A stretch of DNA of 64,000 nucleotides from Terriglobia bacterium (lineage in GTDB: Bacteria; Acidobacteriota; Terriglobia; UBA7540). Below are positions 32,156 to 39,826 of the stretch, piece after piece; within the stretch, counting starts at the first letter, position 1; every line of letters begins with the position of its first letter. Location: contig JBEKHR010000029.1 of NCBI GenBank assembly GCA_050012175.1, positions 1,205 to 65,204 on the forward strand, given 5' to 3'. Position numbers and translations under genes: made by a program. The notes beneath the pieces are model-generated. The model did not search any database and was not told the origin of the DNA. It saw only the letters and a program-made list of their open reading frames with translations.

Positions 32156-32364
32156 CTCACCAGCGGCCTGAAAGGGAGGCCCACGCGCGAGAAAACATGG
32201 GGACAGCGCGCGCGCGGATGCTAGAATGGCTTCTTTCAGCAGCATGGTGGATTGGCGGCGCCCGCACGAAGGCACGGTTTCTTTGGGTTGGAATCGGGGC
32301 AACTTGCCACCCGCTTTTCCTGTCAGTCCACTTTCGACCATCGACTGTCGACTTGGTTGCTTTC

Positions 32365-35300
32365 ATGTTGAAGCTCAACTCGGAACAGCTCCAGGCGGTT
32401 GAACACCACGATGGGCCGCTGCTCGTCATTGCGGGCCCGGGAAGCGGCAAGACACGAGTCATCACGCAACGTATTGTCCATTTGCTCGAGCACGCCCCCG
32501 GACTCGAACCGCAAAACATTCTGGCCTTAACCTTCACGGAGAAGGCTGCCGGAGAGATGAAGTACCGTGTAGGCCAGGCCCTGCCTGACCTCGCCACCTT
32601 CCCACACGTCTCCACTTTTCACGCCTTCGCTTACGAAGTCATCTGCAACCAAGGGGCGGATCATGACGTAACCCCTCAGTCTCGGGTGGCAACGCACGTA
32701 GCGCCGGTCCCGCGCACGGCGGGACCGGCACCTGCCGCCCTAAAGGGCGGCGCTACACCACCTGAGACCGAGGGATCACATCATCAGCAGGCCGGGGAGC
32801 GCATGTTGCTGGACAAGGAGGATGTGTGGGTTTTCCTCAGGCAACGCATGGAGCAACTCCAGCTCGAGTTCTACCAAAAGCTGGCTGAGCCCGGGGCCTT
32901 CCTACACGCCCTGAGTGAGTTCTTCTCTCGTTGCCAGGACGAGCTCATCGAGCCGGAGGACTTCGAGAAATATGCCCAAGAGGCTGAAAGAACTTTTCTG
33001 GAGAATGCCGCCAGGCTGAAGCCCGAGGAGCGCACCCTCGAAGACGAGGAGATTCAAAAGAAAAAGGAGTTGTCGCGGGTCTTCCGCAACAGCCGCCGGC
33101 TGATCGAGCGGGCGGGTAGTTCCAGTCTTGGCAGCCTGATTCCAGAGGCAGTGCACCTGTTCGACCGCCGTGCGGAAATCCTCCAGCGTTACCGCGCGCA
33201 ATTCCGTTTTGTCCTGGTCGATGAGTTTCAGGACACCAACTACGCCCAGTTGGAGCTGCTCAAGCGGCTGGTGGCGCCACCCTTCAACATTACCGCCGTC
33301 GGCGACGACGACCAGGCCATCTACCGCTTCCGTGGCGCCTCACACGGCGCCTTCGACATGTTTGGGCAAGTATTCCCAGGACACCGGACCATCTTTTTGA
33401 ATCGCAATTACCGCTCCACCGAGCGCGTGCTGCGGGTTGCCGATGTGGTCATCAAGAGGAATGAGGACCGATATCCTTCCAAGCCGGAGCTGAAACCTGA
33501 GCGCGAAGAAGGCTGCCCAGTTTATCTGCTGGGCAGCCCGGACTATGTGAGCGAGGCGAATTGGGTTGCCGGAGAAATACAGCGGCTCGTGGCTAAGGGC
33601 TCTTCGTATCGCGACATTGCCGTCCTGTACCGGGCGCATAACTATCGCGACCGACTCGTGGAGGAATTTCAGCGCCGGGGCATACCGTTCGCTATTCGTG
33701 GCCTTTCGGTTCTTTCCACAGTGATTATTCGGGACCTCTTCGCCTACCTTAACTTGGTCCTTTCCCCCCACGACAATATCAGCCTGACGCGGGTACTCCT
33801 GGTGCCGCGATGGAACTTTCGGGAAGAAGTCGCCCTGCAAGTCCGGGTGGAAGCAGAGAAGCAGCGCTGCTCGCTTTATGACGTCCTCACCTCCTGGGAA
33901 AAGGGTCCGAACCCTACCCTCCTCCGAACCACCCACTGGGAGGCCTTGAAACGGCTTCTCCACGACTTGCACTGGGCGGCGCAAAACGGGACGGTAACGA
34001 CGCTGTTCAAGCTCCTCCGCGAGCGGCTCCAACTGCAATCGTTTCTTGGCGAGCGTGACCTGGGGTATGTAAATGCTTTCGAGGGATTCCTCCGGGAGTG
34101 GGAGGAAAAGATCTCGAAATTCCCGCCGCTGGCCGGGCCGGAGTGGGAGGATGCAGGCGCGGAAAAGAAGCCCAGGAAGAATCTGCGCGAATTCATTTAT
34201 TACTTCCGGCATTACCTCGAGGCGGGAGGAAAGATTGAAGCGCCTGACCTGGGAGAACGTGCCGACGCCGTCCAGATGATGAGCGTGCACGCTGCCAAGG
34301 GGCTGGAGTTTCCCGTCGTCTTCCTGCTCAGCGTGGCCTCACGCCGTTTTCCGGCCACGGAGCGCAGGGCCGTCATCGAGTTCCCTGACGAACTTCGCAA
34401 GGGGCCTCTGCCGCCGCAGAATATTCACATGCAAGAGGAACGCCGGCTGTTCTTTGTGGCCCTCACGCGCGCCAAGGACCGCCTCTACGTATCCAGCGTG
34501 GCTGCGCCGGGGAAGAAGCCGTCAAAATTCATCGATGACTTGCTCGCCGACCGGGTGGTTGAGGCTCGGGACATCGAGCGCCTCCAGGCGAAGGAAGTCA
34601 CACAACTCCCCGCCCCGGCTATTCAACTGCCACGTGCCGAAGAGCATAGTCCTCAGCGAAGACTATTCGGGGAGATAGCCGAGGCGGCCGGGGTTCATCC
34701 TCCGATTGCGGAATGGGCCGCGCGCGAACCTGAAATCAAGCCGGGGGAAAAACTGCGCCTGAGCGCTTCGTCGATTGAGGATTACGAGGACTGCCCGCTG
34801 AAGTTCAAGTTCGGCCATTACCTCAAAATCCCCACAGGTCCACAGGCCGCCCTCACCTTTGGAAATATCATGCACCGCTCGGTAAGGCACTATTTCGAGT
34901 TGCGGGCCAAGGGAGAAGCAAACTTCGAGGCCGTAAAGAGGTTTTACGAGTTGTCGTGGAGGAAGACCGAGTTCGAGGACGAATACCAGGAGCAAGCCTA
35001 CAAGCAAGCGGGGCTGGAGCAATTGCGCGCCTTCGTGGAAAAGCAGGAAAGCAGTGAAACGCTGCCCCTGAGCATGGAAAGCTCCTTCTCACTGGACCTG
35101 GGCGAAGTATGGTTGCAAGGCCGCATTGACCAGATTAGTCCCCTGGCCCCGCACACGCGGGAGGGCGAGCGCGCCGTCGAACTGGTTGACTACAAGACCG
35201 GCAAGCCCCGCTCGCAGAAGGATGCCGACAAGAGCTTGCAGCTCTCCGTTTACGCCCTGGCCGCGCAGGAACAAATGAAGCTGAGACCGGTGCGCTTGAC

Positions 35301-35490
35301 GTTTTATTGCCTCACCAACAACGAGCCTGTCCACACCGTCAGGACCGAACAGGACCTTAAAGCCGTCAAGACTGAGATCCTGACGGTAGCCGGCCGGATC
35401 CGCCAGAACCATTTCCCCGCTGCGCCCGGTTTTGTGTGTAAGTTCTGCGATTACCAGCCCATCTGTCCTGCGCACGAGGAGAACTTCTAG
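32365..35490 (+). CDS. UvrD/PcrA-type superfamily-1 helicase fused to a C-terminal PD-(D/E)xK nuclease with a Cas4/AddB-type Fe-S cluster
   Basis: Start at [30 protein letters not shown] (motif I). Also [41 protein letters not shown] and [17 protein letters not shown]. The nuclease part has ...[10 protein letters not shown]...GRIDQI...[11 protein letters not shown]...QLSVYALA...[11 protein letters not shown]. Confidence 0.88.
32673..32774. repeat. 102-nt nested palindrome embedded in frame in the helicase gene
   Basis: Outer arms CCCTCAGTCTCGGGTGG (32673-32689) and CCACCTGAGACCGAGGG (32758-32774), matching at 15/17. Inner GTAGCGC...GCGCTAC (32698-32756) encloses a 10-bp hairpin (32704-32728) and a 7-bp hairpin (32734-32751). 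Confidence 0.7.
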
Positions 35491-35509
35491 AAACACTGAG
35501 GTGAACCAA

Positions 35510-37027
35510 ATGAACGCAATTTTACTGCTCGTGATCGGTATTGTGTTGGGAATTGTGGTCGGCTGGCTGTGGGTGACAGTTCGCTCAAAGGCCGAACTCG
35601 CAAAAGCACAAATAGAAGCGGAGGGGCGCGTCAAAGCGGCAGAAAGCACCTTGAGCGAGGTGCGGGTGCAACTCAACGCGCTCCAGACTTCGTTGGACGC
35701 CAAAGAGAAGGAGATTTCAGGCCTTCAGCAATTGCTGCGCGGAGAAGGCGAGCAAAAGGTGAAGGCACAGACAGAAGTGGAGCAGTTGAAGGGCACGCTG
35801 GAAGACCTTGATGCCTTGCGCGGCCGGATAAAGATAGAAGGCGAACTCCGTGTTGCAGCGGAGACCAAACTCGAGGAAGCGCAGGCGAGCCTCGAAGAAC
35901 AGAAGAAGTTGTTGGAAGACGCCAAGAAAGACCTGGTGGATACGTTTCAAGCGTTGTCCGCTGAAGCGCTCAAGAGCAACAACCAAGCGTTTATCACTCT
36001 GGCCAGGAGCACCTTCGAGACCATTCAAGCCCGTGCGAAAGGAGACCTCGAGACGCGCCAGCAGGCCATCGACGCGCTGGTGGCTCCTTTGAGGGAATCC
36101 CTCACCCGTTATGAGAAGCAGATCCAGGAGATGGAGAAGGCCCGTCAAAGCGCTTACGGCACGCTCGAAGAGCAACTCCGCACCCTGGCCACCACCAACC
36201 AGCAATTGCAGGAAAAGACCTCAGCCCTGACGATTACACTCAAGGGAGGACCCCAGGTACGCGGCCGTTGGGGGGAAATGACCCTTCGGAATGTGGTCGA
36301 GTTGGCGGGCATGTCGAAGCATTGCGATTTCACCGAGCAGGAAACCTTCTCGTCCGAGTCAGGCCGGCTCCGCCCCGACATGATCGTGAGATTGCCCGGC
36401 AACCGACGTATTGCAGTGGATGCCAAGGTGTCGCTACAGGCGTTCCTCGAGGCCTCCGCCGCCGCCAAGGACGAAGAGCGAAAAACGGCGCTCGACAAGC
36501 ATGCCCAAAACGTTCGTGCATATATGAATCAGTTGGCCAGTCGAAGTTATTGGGAGCAGTTGGAGCCGGCCCCGGAGTTTGTGGTCCTGTTTCTTCCCGG
36601 CGAGTCATTCTTCAGCGCGGCGCTGGAACAGGATCGCACACTGATTGAAGACGGAATGCAGAAGCGGGTGGTGTTGGCCACTCCCACGACGCTTATTGCC
36701 TTGCTTCGCGCCGTGGCGTATGGGTGGAGGCAGGAGCAAATCGCCGAGAATGCTCGCCTCATCAGCGAACTGGGCAAGGAACTCTACGACCGCATTCGGC
36801 CCTTCGTTTCTCACTTCCAAGGGATTGGATCAGCTCTCCAGAAGGCCGTCGATACTTACAATAAGGCGGCGGGTTCACTGGAAGGACGGGTCCTGCCCTC
36901 CGCCAGGAAGCTAAAAGAACTTGGCGCGACCGCAGGCGATGAGATCCCTGAGATTGAGCCGGTGGATGAGGCGCCCCGGGCGCTGACCGCAGCCGAGCGC
37001 GACGCGGCTGAGAATAGCAGTTCCTAG
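35510..37027 (+). CDS. rmuC: DNA recombination protein RmuC
   Basis: ATG at 35510 preceded by GAGGTG. N-terminal TM ([17 protein letters not shown]), a long coiled coil, then the conserved C-terminal region ([22 protein letters not shown]...[17 protein letters not shown]...[16 protein letters not shown]). Confidence 0.88.
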
Positions 37028-37030
37028 TCG

Positions 37031-37078
37031 ACCCGCCGCGGCGGGTCAGCTCTCAGCTATCAGCCGTCAGCTTTCAGC
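37031..37078. repeat. 16-bp perfect palindrome followed by an NTCAGCN heptad tract, right after the rmuC stop
   Basis: ACCCGCCGCGGCGGGT (37031-37046; an identical 16-mer is at 8831-8846), then GTCAGCTCTCAGCTATCAGCCGTCAGCTTTCAGC. The unit family is the same as at 12628-12691. Confidence 0.65.
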
Positions 37079-37108
37079 GCTTGAAAAATCGGGGCTAGGC
37101 GCTGGGCC

Positions 37109-37234
37109 AATTCTGAATAGTGAGTAGTAAATTCTGAATTGTGAATTGAGGAAGTGCAGCAGTCAGACGCCTTGGGCGCGGGGCGCAAAGCCAGTTCGGC
37201 GTCCCCAATTCACCATTCACTATTCACAATTCTG
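37109..37234. repeat. inverted heptad arms (GTGAATN units) around a GC-rich hairpin
   Basis: Left: AATTCTGAATAGTGAGTAGTAAATTCTGAATTGTGAATTGAGG. Right: CCCCAATTCACCATTCACTATTCACAATTCTG. The central part contains GACGCC...GGCGTC. Confidence 0.6.
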
Positions 37235-37254
37235 CCAAGAGAAAATGGCCCCCT

Positions 37255-37289
37255 AAAAAAACTTCGGGGATGCATCGCTGCATCCCCGA
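37255..37289 (-). terminator. intrinsic (rho-independent) terminator of the micro-ORF unit
   Basis: On the minus strand: UCGGGGAUGCAGCGAUGCAUCCCCGA (stem 37264-37289) followed by AGUUUUUUU (U-run 37255-37261). Confidence 0.65.
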
Positions 37290-37316
37290 TAGTTCCTTTC
37301 GGATTTGTTGAAGAGC

Positions 37317-37352
37317 TTACCTCTTCTTCTTGGCTTTCTTTTTCGCTGCCAT
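37317..37352 (-). CDS. 11-codon Lys-rich micro-ORF (MAAKKKAKKKR); the unit may alternatively act as an sRNA
   Basis: ATG at 37352-37350 is preceded by GGAGGAG at a 6-nt spacing. TAA at 37319-37317. An in-frame stop lies 10 codons upstream. The ORF sits between a near-consensus promoter and a strong terminator. Confidence 0.3.
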   Translation of the reverse strand: MAAKKKAKKKR

Positions 37353-37418
37353 TCTATTCTCCTCCAGACTTCTTGAATCTCACGCCAGCGTTGCTGGCGG
37401 AGCGCGTATTCAATCTCA

Positions 37419-37447
37419 TGTATAGTGACACCGATTTATCTTGTCAA
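37419..37447 (-). promoter_or_regulatory. candidate sigma-70-type promoter of the micro-ORF unit
   Basis: On the minus strand: TTGACA (37447-37442), 17-nt spacer, TATACA (37424-37419). The predicted transcript is about 155-160 nt and includes the hairpin CGCCAGCGTTGCTGGCG (37383-37399). Confidence 0.45.
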
Positions 37448-37716
37448 GAAGAAAGTGAGGTTCGCGACAAAAAAAATGAAATTTCGATACCCGAAACTGG
37501 AAAATTAGAATGCGCGGAGACATCTGCGAGGATTATTCTCCACCTCCGGTCAGTACGGAACAACCATCGCGAAGGCAACGACGGGATTGCGGACTCACCT
37601 CAGCCGCATGTTCAGCAGAAAACTCGAGGCGCAGGGTATGTGGATGGAGTCATCTCCGGACCGGGTATGCCTATAATGGGCAAAAACGCGGAGCTTGGCC
37701 GCTGCATCTAAGAAGC

Positions 37717-38757
37717 ATGGCGAGAAAATTGAAGATTAGAGATCGTCACCGTACCCCATATCTCCCTCCGCTGGCAGGCAGGACGTACACGCCCATCATT
37801 CTCGGGGTGGTCTTCCTGGCGCTGGCAAGTGTTCCGGGTTTGAGCCAGGAGAAAGCTGAGCAGGAACCGCCGGCCACCATAAGAGTATCGACGGAAGTCG
37901 TGAGCGTGTACGCCGTGGTGGAGGATAAGAAGAAGCACCTGATCCCGGACTTGAAGAAAGAGGATTTCGAACTCGAGGAAGACGGGAGACCCCAGGAGAT
38001 TCGCTACTTCTCGCGTGAAGCTGACACCCCTATTACCATGGGAATCATGGTGGACACCAGCCCCAGCCAAGGAAAGGTGCTGGGCATTGAGCAGGAAGAG
38101 GCAAAGGCCTTTCTGCATCAGGTGATGCGTGTCAAGGACTTGGCTTTTGTCCTGCATTTTGATGTGGAGGTAGAACTCCTCCAGGATTTCACGGCCGATC
38201 AGCGATTGCTCGGACACGCCATCGATGAGACAGTGATCAATGGCGGCGCGCATGGCGTGCTGCCGTCACCCCTGCCCACGGGCGACTCCGGCGGCGCCAC
38301 CCACCTTTACGACGCCGTCTATTTAGCCTCCAACGAGCTTCTGAAGAACGAAGTGGGGCGCAAGGTACTTATCCTCCTGACGGACGGCGAAGACCAGGGG
38401 AGCAAGGTCAAGCTGCAGACCGCCCTGGAGGCCGCGCAAAAATCGGATGTGATCAACTATTCCGTCGCCATCATTGACCGCTCCTTCTATTGGGGACACG
38501 CGATGGGCTTCGGTGGGGATTCCGTATTGAAAAAGCTCTCGGACGACACCGGTGGAAGCGTTCTCGAAGTGAACCGCGCCAAAGATACCTCGGCGGCGTT
38601 TCAGCAAATTGCCCGCGAATTGCGAACTCAATACCTGCTCGGATATACGCCTACGAACACCAAGCACGATGGGTCTTATCGCAAGATCCGGGTGCAAGTT
38701 CGCAATGGGGACTACAGAGTTCAGGCCCGGCGGGGTTATTACGCACCCACACAGTAG
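37717..38757 (+). CDS. secreted VWA-domain protein (acidobacterial VWFA-related family)
   Basis: Start at MARKLKIRDRH... followed by a TM/signal segment. IRVSTEVVSVYAVVEDKKKHLIPDLKKEDFELEEDGRPQEIRYF; C-terminal ...DGSYRKIRVQVRNGDYRVQARRGYYA. The ORF track start at 37510 is judged too far upstream. Confidence 0.8.
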   Translation: MARKLKIRDRHRTPYLPPLAGRTYTPIILGVVFLALASVPGLSQEKAEQEPPATIRVSTEVVSVYAVVEDKKKHLIPDLKKEDFELEEDGRPQEIRYFSREADTPITMGIMVDTSPSQGKVLGIEQEEAKAFLHQVMRVKDLAFVLHFDVEVELLQDFTADQRLLGHAIDETVINGGAHGVLPSPLPTGDSGGATHLYDAVYLASNELLKNEVGRKVLILLTDGEDQGSKVKLQTALEAAQKSDVINYSVAIIDRSFYWGHAMGFGGDSVLKKLSDDTGGSVLEVNRAKDTSAAFQQIARELRTQYLLGYTPTNTKHDGSYRKIRVQVRNGDYRVQARRGYYAPTQ

Positions 38758-38857
38758 GGAACAGGGAACAGGGAATAGGGAACAGGGAGTGCGCACCCAC
38801 GGAGTAGGGATCAGGTTACGGGTTAACAGGAATGACAGGCTTTTCCCTGTTCCCTGG
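38756..38857. repeat. heptad-repeat hairpin (GGGAACA units) between the convergent VWA genes
   Basis: TAGGGAACAGGGAACAGGGAATAGGGAACAGGGA ... TCCCTGTTCCCTGG. CGCACCCAC(A/G)(C/G)AGTAGGGA is also duplicated directly, at 38741 and 38791. Confidence 0.6.
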
Positions 38858-38863
38858 CACCTG

Positions 38864-39826
38864 CTATTGAGACAGCGCGAAATAACCGTTCTTGGCCCGC
38901 ACGCGCAGGCTTTTATCGACAGGCTGGATGGTGATGCTGCGGAATGTCCCATCGTGGGCAGCGTTCGTTGAAACGTAGGCCAAGCTGTATTGATTGCGGA
39001 GCTCGCGGGCGATTTCATGAAAATCCGCGGCCAAATCACCTGCCTCGAAGGGAAAGAAGGCATGGCCCCCGGTTACCTCCGCCAGCCGGTGCAGGACTTT
39101 GTCCCCCCGTCCCTCCGAGCCCGTGCGGTTGGTGCTGATGGTGAAAACTGTAACCTCAGCACGCTGCGCCATGGCCAGTGCCTCTTCCCGAGTATGCACG
39201 CTCTGATTATCCTCCCCGTCGCTGACGATGATCATGACCCGGCGCAGGTAAGGTTCAGGCGGCGGAAAGAAGAGCATCTTCTCCTTGCATGAGAAAAAGA
39301 CAGCATCGAAGAGGCTCGTAACACCCCCGGCCTGAAGGCCCTGAATGGCGTTCGAGAGTTTCTCGATGTCGTCCGTGTAATCCTGGACAAGCTGGGGTTC
39401 CACGTCAAAAGCCACCACGAAGGCGAGGTCTTTGCCGGGGCGCACCGCTATGTTCAAGAAATCGATAGCTGCTTCCTGTTCAAAGTGTAGCCGGGCGCGA
39501 ATACTGTTGCTGGCGTCGACCAAGATCCCGATGCGTAAGGGGAGGTCGGTCTCGCGGCTGAAGAAGCGGATGTCTTGGGGCTTGCCGTCCTCGAAGATTC
39601 GGAAGTCGTCTTTGGTGAGGTCGGTGACGAGCCGGTTCTTCTTGTCGGTAACGGTCGTGAGTACGTTGACCAGTTCAACGCGCACCTTGATTCGATTCTG
39701 GTCGTTGGAAGACTGAGAATTATTGCTGTTTGACCCACCGGCGGTGTCTTGTGCGAAGAGTCCTGCCCCCGGGACGCAGAAGAGTAAGAGGAAGAAGAGC
39801 GGTTTTTTCATCCTTGAGTTCTCCAC
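38864..39826 (-). CDS. secreted VWA-domain protein (acidobacterial VWFA-related family)
   Basis: Signal peptide KKPLFFLLLFCVPGAGLFA. IKVRVELVNVLTTVTDKKNRLVTDLTKDDFRIFEDGKPQDIRFF; C-terminal DGTFRSITIQPVDKSLRVRAKNGYFA. Confidence 0.82.
   Translation of the reverse strand: MENSRMKKPLFFLLLFCVPGAGLFAQDTAGGSNSNNSQSSNDQNRIKVRVELVNVLTTVTDKKNRLVTDLTKDDFRIFEDGKPQDIRFFSRETDLPLRIGILVDASNSIRARLHFEQEAAIDFLNIAVRPGKDLAFVVAFDVEPQLVQDYTDDIEKLSNAIQGLQAGGVTSLFDAVFFSCKEKMLFFPPPEPYLRRVMIIVSDGEDNQSVHTREEALAMAQRAEVTVFTISTNRTGSEGRGDKVLHRLAEVTGGHAFFPFEAGDLAADFHEIARELRNQYSLAYVSTNAAHDGTFRSITIQPVDKSLRVRAKNGYFALSQ

Follow-up and report, generated by a model that had tools for sequence, protein, structure and literature searches.

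Low-complexity polycations of lysine, alanine and proline have been described in bacteria as tails of larger proteins. In Pseudomonas, the KPAA-repeat tails of AlgP and PhaF have DNA, RNA and polyphosphate granules as ligands and differ between species in the number of repeats (PMC9239181, PMC12818456), and Hc2 of Chlamydia varies in size by lysine-rich pentamers (PMC2848022). The present report concerns a stretch of about 160 bases located between two ordinary genes, rmuC and a gene for a VWA-domain protein, on the minus strand of a 64,000-nucleotide piece of a Terriglobia genome (Acidobacteriota; contig JBEKHR010000029.1), which is referred to as a whole as the window. This stretch, listed by no annotation, is very probably a real and translated gene with a promoter and a terminator of its own, and its predicted product is the 11-residue peptide MAAKKKAKKKR, one of a family of lysine-rich peptides from related genomes.

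The likeness of this family to AlgP, PhaF and Hc2 lies in the low-complexity Lys/Ala/Pro polycation, in a tetra- or pentapeptide periodicity, which takes the form (AKPK/AKAK)n in the long members of the family, and in the variable number of repeats. The known tails are regions of 150–200 amino acids carried on folded domains, whereas the protein of the mini-gene would be the tail alone. In addition, the 11-mer of the window has neither proline nor a tandem repeat and so falls outside the histone-H1-like repeat class, no sequence homology to the known tails is detectable, and polyanion binding by the family peptide is putative.

Very short functional open reading frames (ORFs) of bacteria include the leader peptides trpL and pheL and the 7-codon mccA, which are similar to the mini-gene in ORF length and, for mccA, in the possession of a dedicated Shine-Dalgarno (SD) sequence. 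A further class to be compared is formed by the Hfq-binding class II small RNAs (sRNAs) and by dual-function sRNAs such as SgrS/SgrT, with which the unit shares a compact RNA of about 160 nt, a 5' hairpin, an A-R-N-rich segment and a U-tailed intrinsic terminator.

A conserved lysine-rich mini-gene on the minus strand

The evidence for a gene comes foremost from the way in which the ORF varies. In the window its codons are ATG GCA GCG AAA AAG AAA GCC AAG AAG AAG AGG TAA, and the same peptide is encoded identically by 14 distinct DNA sequences, which differ at synonymous sites alone (GCA/GCC/GCG/GCT and AAA/AAG), including a first-position synonymous change from AGG/AGA to CGG among the Arg codons (AGG/AGA/CGG). 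When 73 distinct ORF sequences were compared with the consensus of the same length, 143 codon differences were synonymous and 56 non-synonymous, that is 72% synonymous versus the 19% that random single-base changes would be expected to give here, and third positions were found to hold 166 of the 255 base differences. Changes in length, which reach 190 nt, leave the reading frame intact, as well as the KKKR at the C-terminus and the stop. This is the pattern of a protein-coding sequence with a preserved reading frame, and by such comparison the ORF is under purifying selection as a protein, the comparative evidence for translation being strong. The initial annotation of this stretch had left the choice between a tiny polycationic peptide and an sRNA with an incidental ORF. 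The former is supported by the synonymous variation and the in-frame length changes; an incidental ORF can be rejected, since the variation is that of a coding sequence and an RNA-only motif of the A-R-N type fails to explain the synonymous alleles, the in-frame lengths and the invariant SD and ATG.

The elements that surround the ORF are given here one per line, in the order of the minus strand, a reading of which from 37100 to 37600 places every one of them at these coordinates (UTR, untranslated region):

37466..37475, minus strand: T-rich tract resembling an UP element (putative function), about -54 to -63 from the predicted start, kept in most close relatives in the alignment
37448..37458, minus strand: box TCACTTTCTTC adjoining the -35 hexamer on its upstream side, nearly invariant, family form CACTTTCYTC
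37442..37447, minus strand: -35 hexamer TTGACA, invariant in all family members
37419..37424, minus strand: -10 hexamer TATACA, 17 nt past the -35, with the same spacing for the family variants TATACA, TAAACA, TATAGA and TATACC
37400..37407, minus strand: 5'-UTR box ACGCGCUC, just ahead of the hairpin, identical or at least 90% conserved over 74 distinct 5' UTRs
37383..37399, minus strand: 5'-UTR hairpin CGCCAGC-AAC-GCUGGCG of 7 bp, with covariation
37359..37365, minus strand: SD sequence GGAGGAG, 6 nt before the ATG, GAGGAGAA being invariant in 74 of 74 distinct UTRs
37317..37352, minus strand: coding sequence of MAAKKKAKKKR, 11 codons and TAA, from the ATG at 37352 to the TAA at 37317
37294..37303, minus strand: 3'-UTR hairpin UCC-GAAA-GGA, what is left in the window of a second hairpin, small and weak with 3 bp at -2.7 kcal/mol
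37255..37289, minus strand: intrinsic terminator found by a terminator scan, with the stem at 37289–37264, then AG, then T7 at 37261–37255

The ATG is likewise invariant across the 74 distinct 5' UTRs, and pattern scans find the promoter hexamers to be kept family-wide. The TCACTTTCTTC box has one match in the window versus 0.14 expected, and this box, or its family form, could be part of an extended promoter or the site of a regulator. The -35 hexamer agrees fully with the consensus and stands 17 nt from the -10, which matches the consensus at four of six positions and lacks the final T; because it ends in A instead of T, TTGACA-N17-TATACA was not listed by the consensus promoter scan. The near-consensus promoter of the initial annotation therefore stands for the -35 and for the spacing and falls short for the -10. 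Its larger claim, that of a self-contained transcription unit on the minus strand, was borne out, as promoter, 5' hairpin, SD, ORF and terminator are conserved as one block; the SD and the 11-codon Lys-rich ORF are at 37365–37359 and 37352–37317, the 5' hairpin is present at 37399–37383 (the letters quoted for it having been the plus-strand complement), and the GC-rich terminator hairpin, for which 10–12 bp had been given, has a stem of 11 bp.

Such a unit is more than a product of chance. A search of both strands for SD-preceded ORFs of 8–85 codons with at least 45% Lys returned a single instance in the 64-kb window, namely the mini-ORF; 178 kb of control sequence from rmuC loci of other lineages contained no such ORF. 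For an assessment of conservation, loci were retrieved by means of RmuC, with one genome per species and without reference to the mini-gene, and the 483-bp spacer between rmuC and the VWA gene was compared with them by BLASTN. The RmuC relatives of the window are metagenome-assembled genomes (MAGs) of Terriglobia from peat and soil, for example from the SPRUCE bog, and DNA of the region is also present in metagenome runs from peat and wetland. The unit was found in 17 of 17 Terriglobia loci whose RmuC is 60–96% identical in amino acid sequence, the shared segment corresponding to 37250–37477 of the window at 73–98% nucleotide identity, so that both ORF and hairpins are conserved in related genomes, as the initial annotation had proposed to verify by BLASTN; the two differ in kind, a comparison that it had also proposed, the ORF varying mostly synonymously and by in-frame lengths and the stems by compensatory substitutions. 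Because the loci were fetched independently of the unit, this count is an unbiased estimate of its spread in the clade, and because the remaining spacer is not conserved in loci that all keep the unit at such identity, the alignments indicate that the unit is better conserved than its protein-coding neighbours.

Pattern scans extended the family further. Many Terriglobia loci with K-rich mini-ORFs were among the matches listed for the SD-ATG pattern, and the promoter pattern CACTTTCYTCTTGACA-N17-TATACAT was present at 82 loci, all of them from Acidobacteriota/Terriglobia, including MAGs labelled subdivision 13. At these promoter-pattern loci a Lys-rich mini-ORF follows wherever the downstream sequence lies within the contig, the exception being a locus at a contig end (L180). 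With a third pattern, taken from the 5' UTR, the family grew to 113 loci, every one in an uncultured Acidobacteriota/Terriglobia assembly, with no cultured strain among the family pattern matches. The family is spread over more than 100 (about 110) species of an uncultured Terriglobia lineage, with one copy per genome. An apparent second copy in MAG MFD03323.bin.2.41 was considered as a case of paralogy and rejected: both copies (L171 versus L007/L047, on contigs CAWJHY010000053 and CAWJHY010000002, with the peptides MATKKKAKKKR and MAAKKKAKKKR) have the same rmuC and VWA neighbours and differ in their identities to the window, and the bin is probably a mixture of two related strains or species.

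The peptides of the family include MPKKKKKKR (9 amino acids), MAAKKKAKKKR (11 amino acids, the commonest), MAAKKKAKKKKR, MPAKKKAKAKKKR, MAAKKKAKPKAKAKAKKKR, MAVAKKKSKAKPKAKGKSKAKAKKKKR and longer forms, up to an (AKPK/AKAK)n protein of 74 amino acids, this type of repeat being seen in relatives of 19–74 amino acids. All length variants, from 9 to 74 amino acids, end in KKK(K)R, rarely in K or S, followed by the stop, and what is kept apart from this end is an N-terminal MA or MP and a Lys/Ala(/Pro) body. Both Ala and Pro after Met permit removal of the Met. The conserved property, as far as the comparison of these peptides goes, is charge, not sequence or length.

Searches of databases and literature returned no described counterpart. 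The 11-mer is below the minimum length of the family-model tools, and the minimum of the protein collection is 20 amino acids; the longer relatives were searched in its place. Five family forms of 24–47 amino acids had no meaningful match in Pfam and NCBIfam, ribosomal models included, none of ten family peptides of 21–74 amino acids was present on exact look-up in a collection of 15 billion proteins, and a phmmer-type search with a 47-residue form gave nothing at an E-value of 1e-3 or better. Literature searches on the peptide string, on lysine-rich small proteins of Acidobacteria and on polycationic small ORFs found nothing relevant. Very small, strongly basic proteins and H1-like polycations are known as such; a lineage-conserved stand-alone version of 9–11 codons is, to the extent of these searches, undescribed.

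RNA structure and transcription of the unit

The two hairpins that enclose the message are conserved as structures. In the 5' hairpin, 98.8% of the alignment cells are paired and four of the seven pairs show changes on both sides (for example C-G to U-A in 9 sequences); none of 500 shuffles matches the observed values, and slid controls pair 18–66% of cells. The terminator stem has 11 pairs, seven of them G-C, and a loop of 4 nt, and after AG the T7 tract comes next, as is characteristic of an intrinsic terminator. Over 77 sequences, 99.7% of its cells are paired, with double changes from A-U to G-C in 11 of them, apart from which the stem sequence GGGGAUGCAGCGAUGCAUCCCC is almost invariant. 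Between the stop codon and the terminator, 51 of the 77 members have a further hairpin of -3 kcal/mol or stronger, formed from differing sequences with stems such as CUCUUCA/UGAAAGAG, GCUUCAG/CUGAAGC and CUCC/GGAG. The RNA as a whole, predicted to be 158 nt long, folds at -57 kcal/mol (z = -5.2), and none of 200 shuffles folds as well. The ACGCGCUC box could be a binding site for a protein or an RNA. Sequestration of the SD by an invariant GCUCC box was also considered and rejected, as at most four pairs are possible, both sides are invariant and the pairing is absent from the minimum free energy (MFE) fold. A scan of 36800–37800 against Rfam (E-value up to 10) identified no family, the best scores being 10–18 bits versus thresholds of 39–87, at E-values of at least 2.5.

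RNA of the unit is present in metatranscriptomes. Logan contigs from three peat or wetland metatranscriptomes cover the region from 37256, 37257 or 37259 to 37396 or 37399 and are absent from the adjoining gene ends, 3' for rmuC and 5' for the VWA gene. These contigs show that the RNA is present, not its abundance or exact ends; they fit an RNA which ends at the T-tract and starts at the 5' hairpin or slightly upstream of it, although one metatranscriptome contig runs past the T-tract into unlike sequence and contigs are not direct data on the 3' end. The depth of the contigs was rejected as a measure of expression, because the conserved unit collects contigs from several related species and depths cannot be compared from gene to gene; in a 19-kb view, contig coverage of other genes is comparably sparse.

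Flanking genes and spacer sequence

On one side the mini-gene is flanked by rmuC (35432–37027, plus strand; Pfam RmuC, E = 8e-106) and on the other by the VWA-domain gene (ORF 37510–38757, plus strand), from which it is always divergent, a linkage that is constant across RmuC divergence of 47–96%. In most loci rmuC is convergent with the mini-gene and follows a gene for an AddA-like helicase-nuclease. The clade with the peptide MPAKKKAKAKKKR has no rmuC at this place, and in one of its loci (L176) a gene of the VTT/DedA type is found some 350 nt downstream in the same orientation. Across the family loci compared, no co-oriented downstream gene is conserved, and the neighbours (VWA, RmuC and AddA-like) include no modifying enzyme, transporter or signal peptide.

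The flanking genes have features of their own. The AddA-like UvrD-helicase/PD-(D/E)XK nuclease gene (1097 amino acids) overlaps the start of rmuC, and the two (32197–37027) make up a pair of genes for DNA repair and recombination that is kept throughout the family loci. Two convergent paralogous VWA genes, at 37510–38757 on the plus strand and 38864–39826 on the minus strand, are about 40% identical to each other and are both conserved beside the mini-gene in nearly all family loci; they resemble the secreted VWFA-related proteins specific to Acidobacteria (TIGR03436). The first 70 codons of the 415-residue VWA ORF (37510–37720) look non-genuine (MRGDICEDYSPPPV...), and a start at Met71 (ATG 37718–37720, MARKLKIRDRH..., then a hydrophobic segment resembling a signal or anchor) appears more plausible, which would put about 270 nt between the divergent promoters.

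A plus-strand ORF of 185 amino acids (37154–37711) that overlaps the unit was judged to be spurious, having no Pfam hit and lying in non-conserved spacer. The other half of the spacer (37028–37250), which holds arrays of heptamers, is shared with the two closest relatives only (L014 and L003), and is a recent insertion or expansion beside the terminator of the mini-gene, because it is absent from further genomes with 95–96% identical RmuC. Tandem arrays with a period of 7 nt are found in spacers just past the ends of genes, at 37046–37078, 37109–37148, 37206–37232 and 38756–38788, with TCAGCTA in 4.7 copies after rmuC and AGGGAAC in 4.7 copies behind the VWA gene; two arrays of the AATTGTG/GTGAAT type, inverted relative to each other, make up an imperfect palindrome of about 125 bp. 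Metatranscriptome contigs of many other loci are very rich in the same heptamer arrays, with a bin depth of up to 275 in X29. The arrays resemble the heptameric STRR repeats of cyanobacteria.

Possible functions of the peptide

In the model that is favoured here, the product of the mini-gene is a free-standing polycationic peptide that would bind polyanions, be it DNA of the nucleoid, RNA or the ribosome, or polyphosphate; provided that the gene is real, a probability of about 0.5 is assigned to this generic mechanism. A sigma-70-type promoter, consisting of TTGACA-17-TATACA together with the upstream box and the T-tract, would drive synthesis of an RNA of some 155–160 nt, its strength and start being predictions. 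The 5' stem-loop and the strong terminator hairpin would bracket this very short mRNA, the former probably protecting or stabilizing it and the latter ending it, and the invariant strong SD would direct translation of the 11 codons to MAAKKKAKKKR. Following likely removal of the Met, a peptide of 10 residues with a charge of about +7/+8 would result, which could act in trans as a genetically encoded polycation that neutralizes or condenses polyanions of the cell, and would be a minimal, free-standing counterpart of the K/A/P tails that resemble histone H1 in AlgP, PhaF and Hc2. This model is preferred on account of the conservation of charge only, the Lys/Ala/Pro repeats of the long forms and their likeness to H1-like tails. 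The more specific proposal, by which the peptide is a trans-acting component of the cell, either as an encoded "polyamine" or minimal H1-like tail and thereby a core single-copy gene of the lineage, or as an unrecognized component of the Acidobacteria ribosome, is put forward tentatively, at odds a little short of even.

Several observations weigh against the polycation model. The function is argued from composition and analogy, and an 11-mer would bind polyanions weakly and non-specifically in comparison with H1-like tails of 150 amino acids. The peptide itself is predicted from sequence comparison, its hosts are uncultured, and trypsin would destroy it. At the level of transcription, the -10 hexamer is without its canonical final T, the metatranscriptome contigs are unstranded and of low depth, with some DNA possible among them, and they stop at the hairpin (37396–37399) and not at the predicted start near 37412. 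Furthermore, ACGCGCUC is strongly conserved and the terminator stem close to invariant, a hint of some function at the RNA level that a peptide-only model leaves unexplained.

Among the alternatives, the one that survives best, and which is nevertheless unlikely, is that of a lineage-specific miniature ribosomal protein occupying a pocket in the rRNA in the manner of bL37, bS22, Thx and eL41. These proteins are of fixed length, Arg-rich and non-repetitive, whereas the family described here spans 9–74 amino acids of Lys/Ala low complexity. The resemblance is that bL37 (24 amino acids) and bS22 (33 amino acids), both of Actinobacteria and bS22 also of Bacteroidota, Thx of Thermus and eL41 of eukaryotes (25 amino acids) are tiny, very basic, stand-alone, confined to a single lineage and frequently overlooked in annotation, and that lineage-specific ribosomal proteins of 24–33 amino acids have precedents (for example PMC10085706 and PMC10081302). 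The mini-gene agrees with this in encoding a tiny and extremely basic peptide, in standing alone with strong expression signals, namely a -35 without mismatch, a strong SD that is invariant and a strong terminator, and in being single-copy in every genome of the clade. The eight-fold spread in length by low-complexity repeats is, however, unlike a protein made for a fixed pocket, the forms long enough to be searched have no similarity to ribosomal models of NCBIfam or Pfam, and the gene is unlinked to ribosomal genes; association of the peptide with the ribosome is hypothetical.

A different explanation is that the unit acts mainly as a regulatory sRNA, possibly with a dual function, in which the A-R-N triplets and the U-tail would form a platform of the Hfq type, or the UTR boxes would pair with targets, translation being secondary. 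Consistent with that, ACGCGCUC, the 5' hairpin and the terminator stem are as conserved as the ORF, the ORF is itself a run of A-R-N triplets (AAA/AAG/AGG), and the RNA is compact and strongly folded. Yet the variation follows the genetic code, with the third positions of GCN free and AGG replaced by CGG, a coding-type pattern that sets the unit apart from Hfq class II sRNAs and SgrS/SgrT; the in-frame AKPK expansions leave A-R-N at every second triplet only; SD and ATG are invariant and optimally spaced; and neither an Rfam match nor complementarity to a target was identified. As an account of the unit as a whole this seems improbable.

It is still less probable, to the point of being remote, that the peptide is a precursor or substrate that is modified or exported like the 7-residue microcin precursor of mccA, perhaps in concert with the secreted VWA protein encoded divergently. 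Precursors of this kind typically come from very short stand-alone ORFs, and the constant linkage to the VWA gene would be in keeping with it, but mccA sits in an operon for maturation and export, nothing of which is present here, no modifying enzyme, transporter or signal peptide is nearby, and wide variation in length and low-complexity repeats are atypical of precursors.

The leader-peptide or attenuator option of the initial annotation, in which ribosomes on the Lys codons would set read-through into a downstream gene or into rmuC antisense, is very unlikely indeed, for although a run of Lys codons stands 27 nt upstream of the terminator hairpin and one RNA contig extends beyond the T-tract, there is no constant co-oriented downstream gene on which it could act in cis as trpL and pheL act on their operons (rmuC is convergent in most loci and replaced in others), the spacer past the terminator is not conserved, no anti-terminator pairing occurs in the MFE, centroid or consensus folds, the stretch between stop and terminator folds by itself into a small hairpin in most members, Arg and Ala are kept as amino acids, and a sensor would gain nothing from repeat expansions.

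The mini-gene is among the shortest stand-alone protein genes, and, if the polycation model is correct, would be the shortest conserved free-standing gene for a bacterial protein with its own promoter and terminator, the series from 9 to 74 amino acids then showing how K/A/P tails of the H1 type arise and evolve as independent genes. ORFs of this size are ignored by gene callers and protein databases, and even the forms of up to 74 amino acids that were looked up are missing from the collection of 15 billion proteins; here the gene is carried, with clear selection at the protein level, by more than 100 species of a phylum that ranks among the most abundant in soil and peat, which makes a clean case that proteins of about 10 residues can be core genes. 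With its graded lengths, from +7 to about +35 in charge, the family is also a natural series for asking how much polycation cells need, and it is a minimal setting in which to study H1-like binding to DNA, RNA or polyphosphate. Should the peptide instead be bound to the ribosome, it would be a new lineage-specific ribosomal protein. The strongly conserved promoter, UTR and terminator are ready and probably strong expression parts for Acidobacteria, a phylum that is poor in genetic tools.

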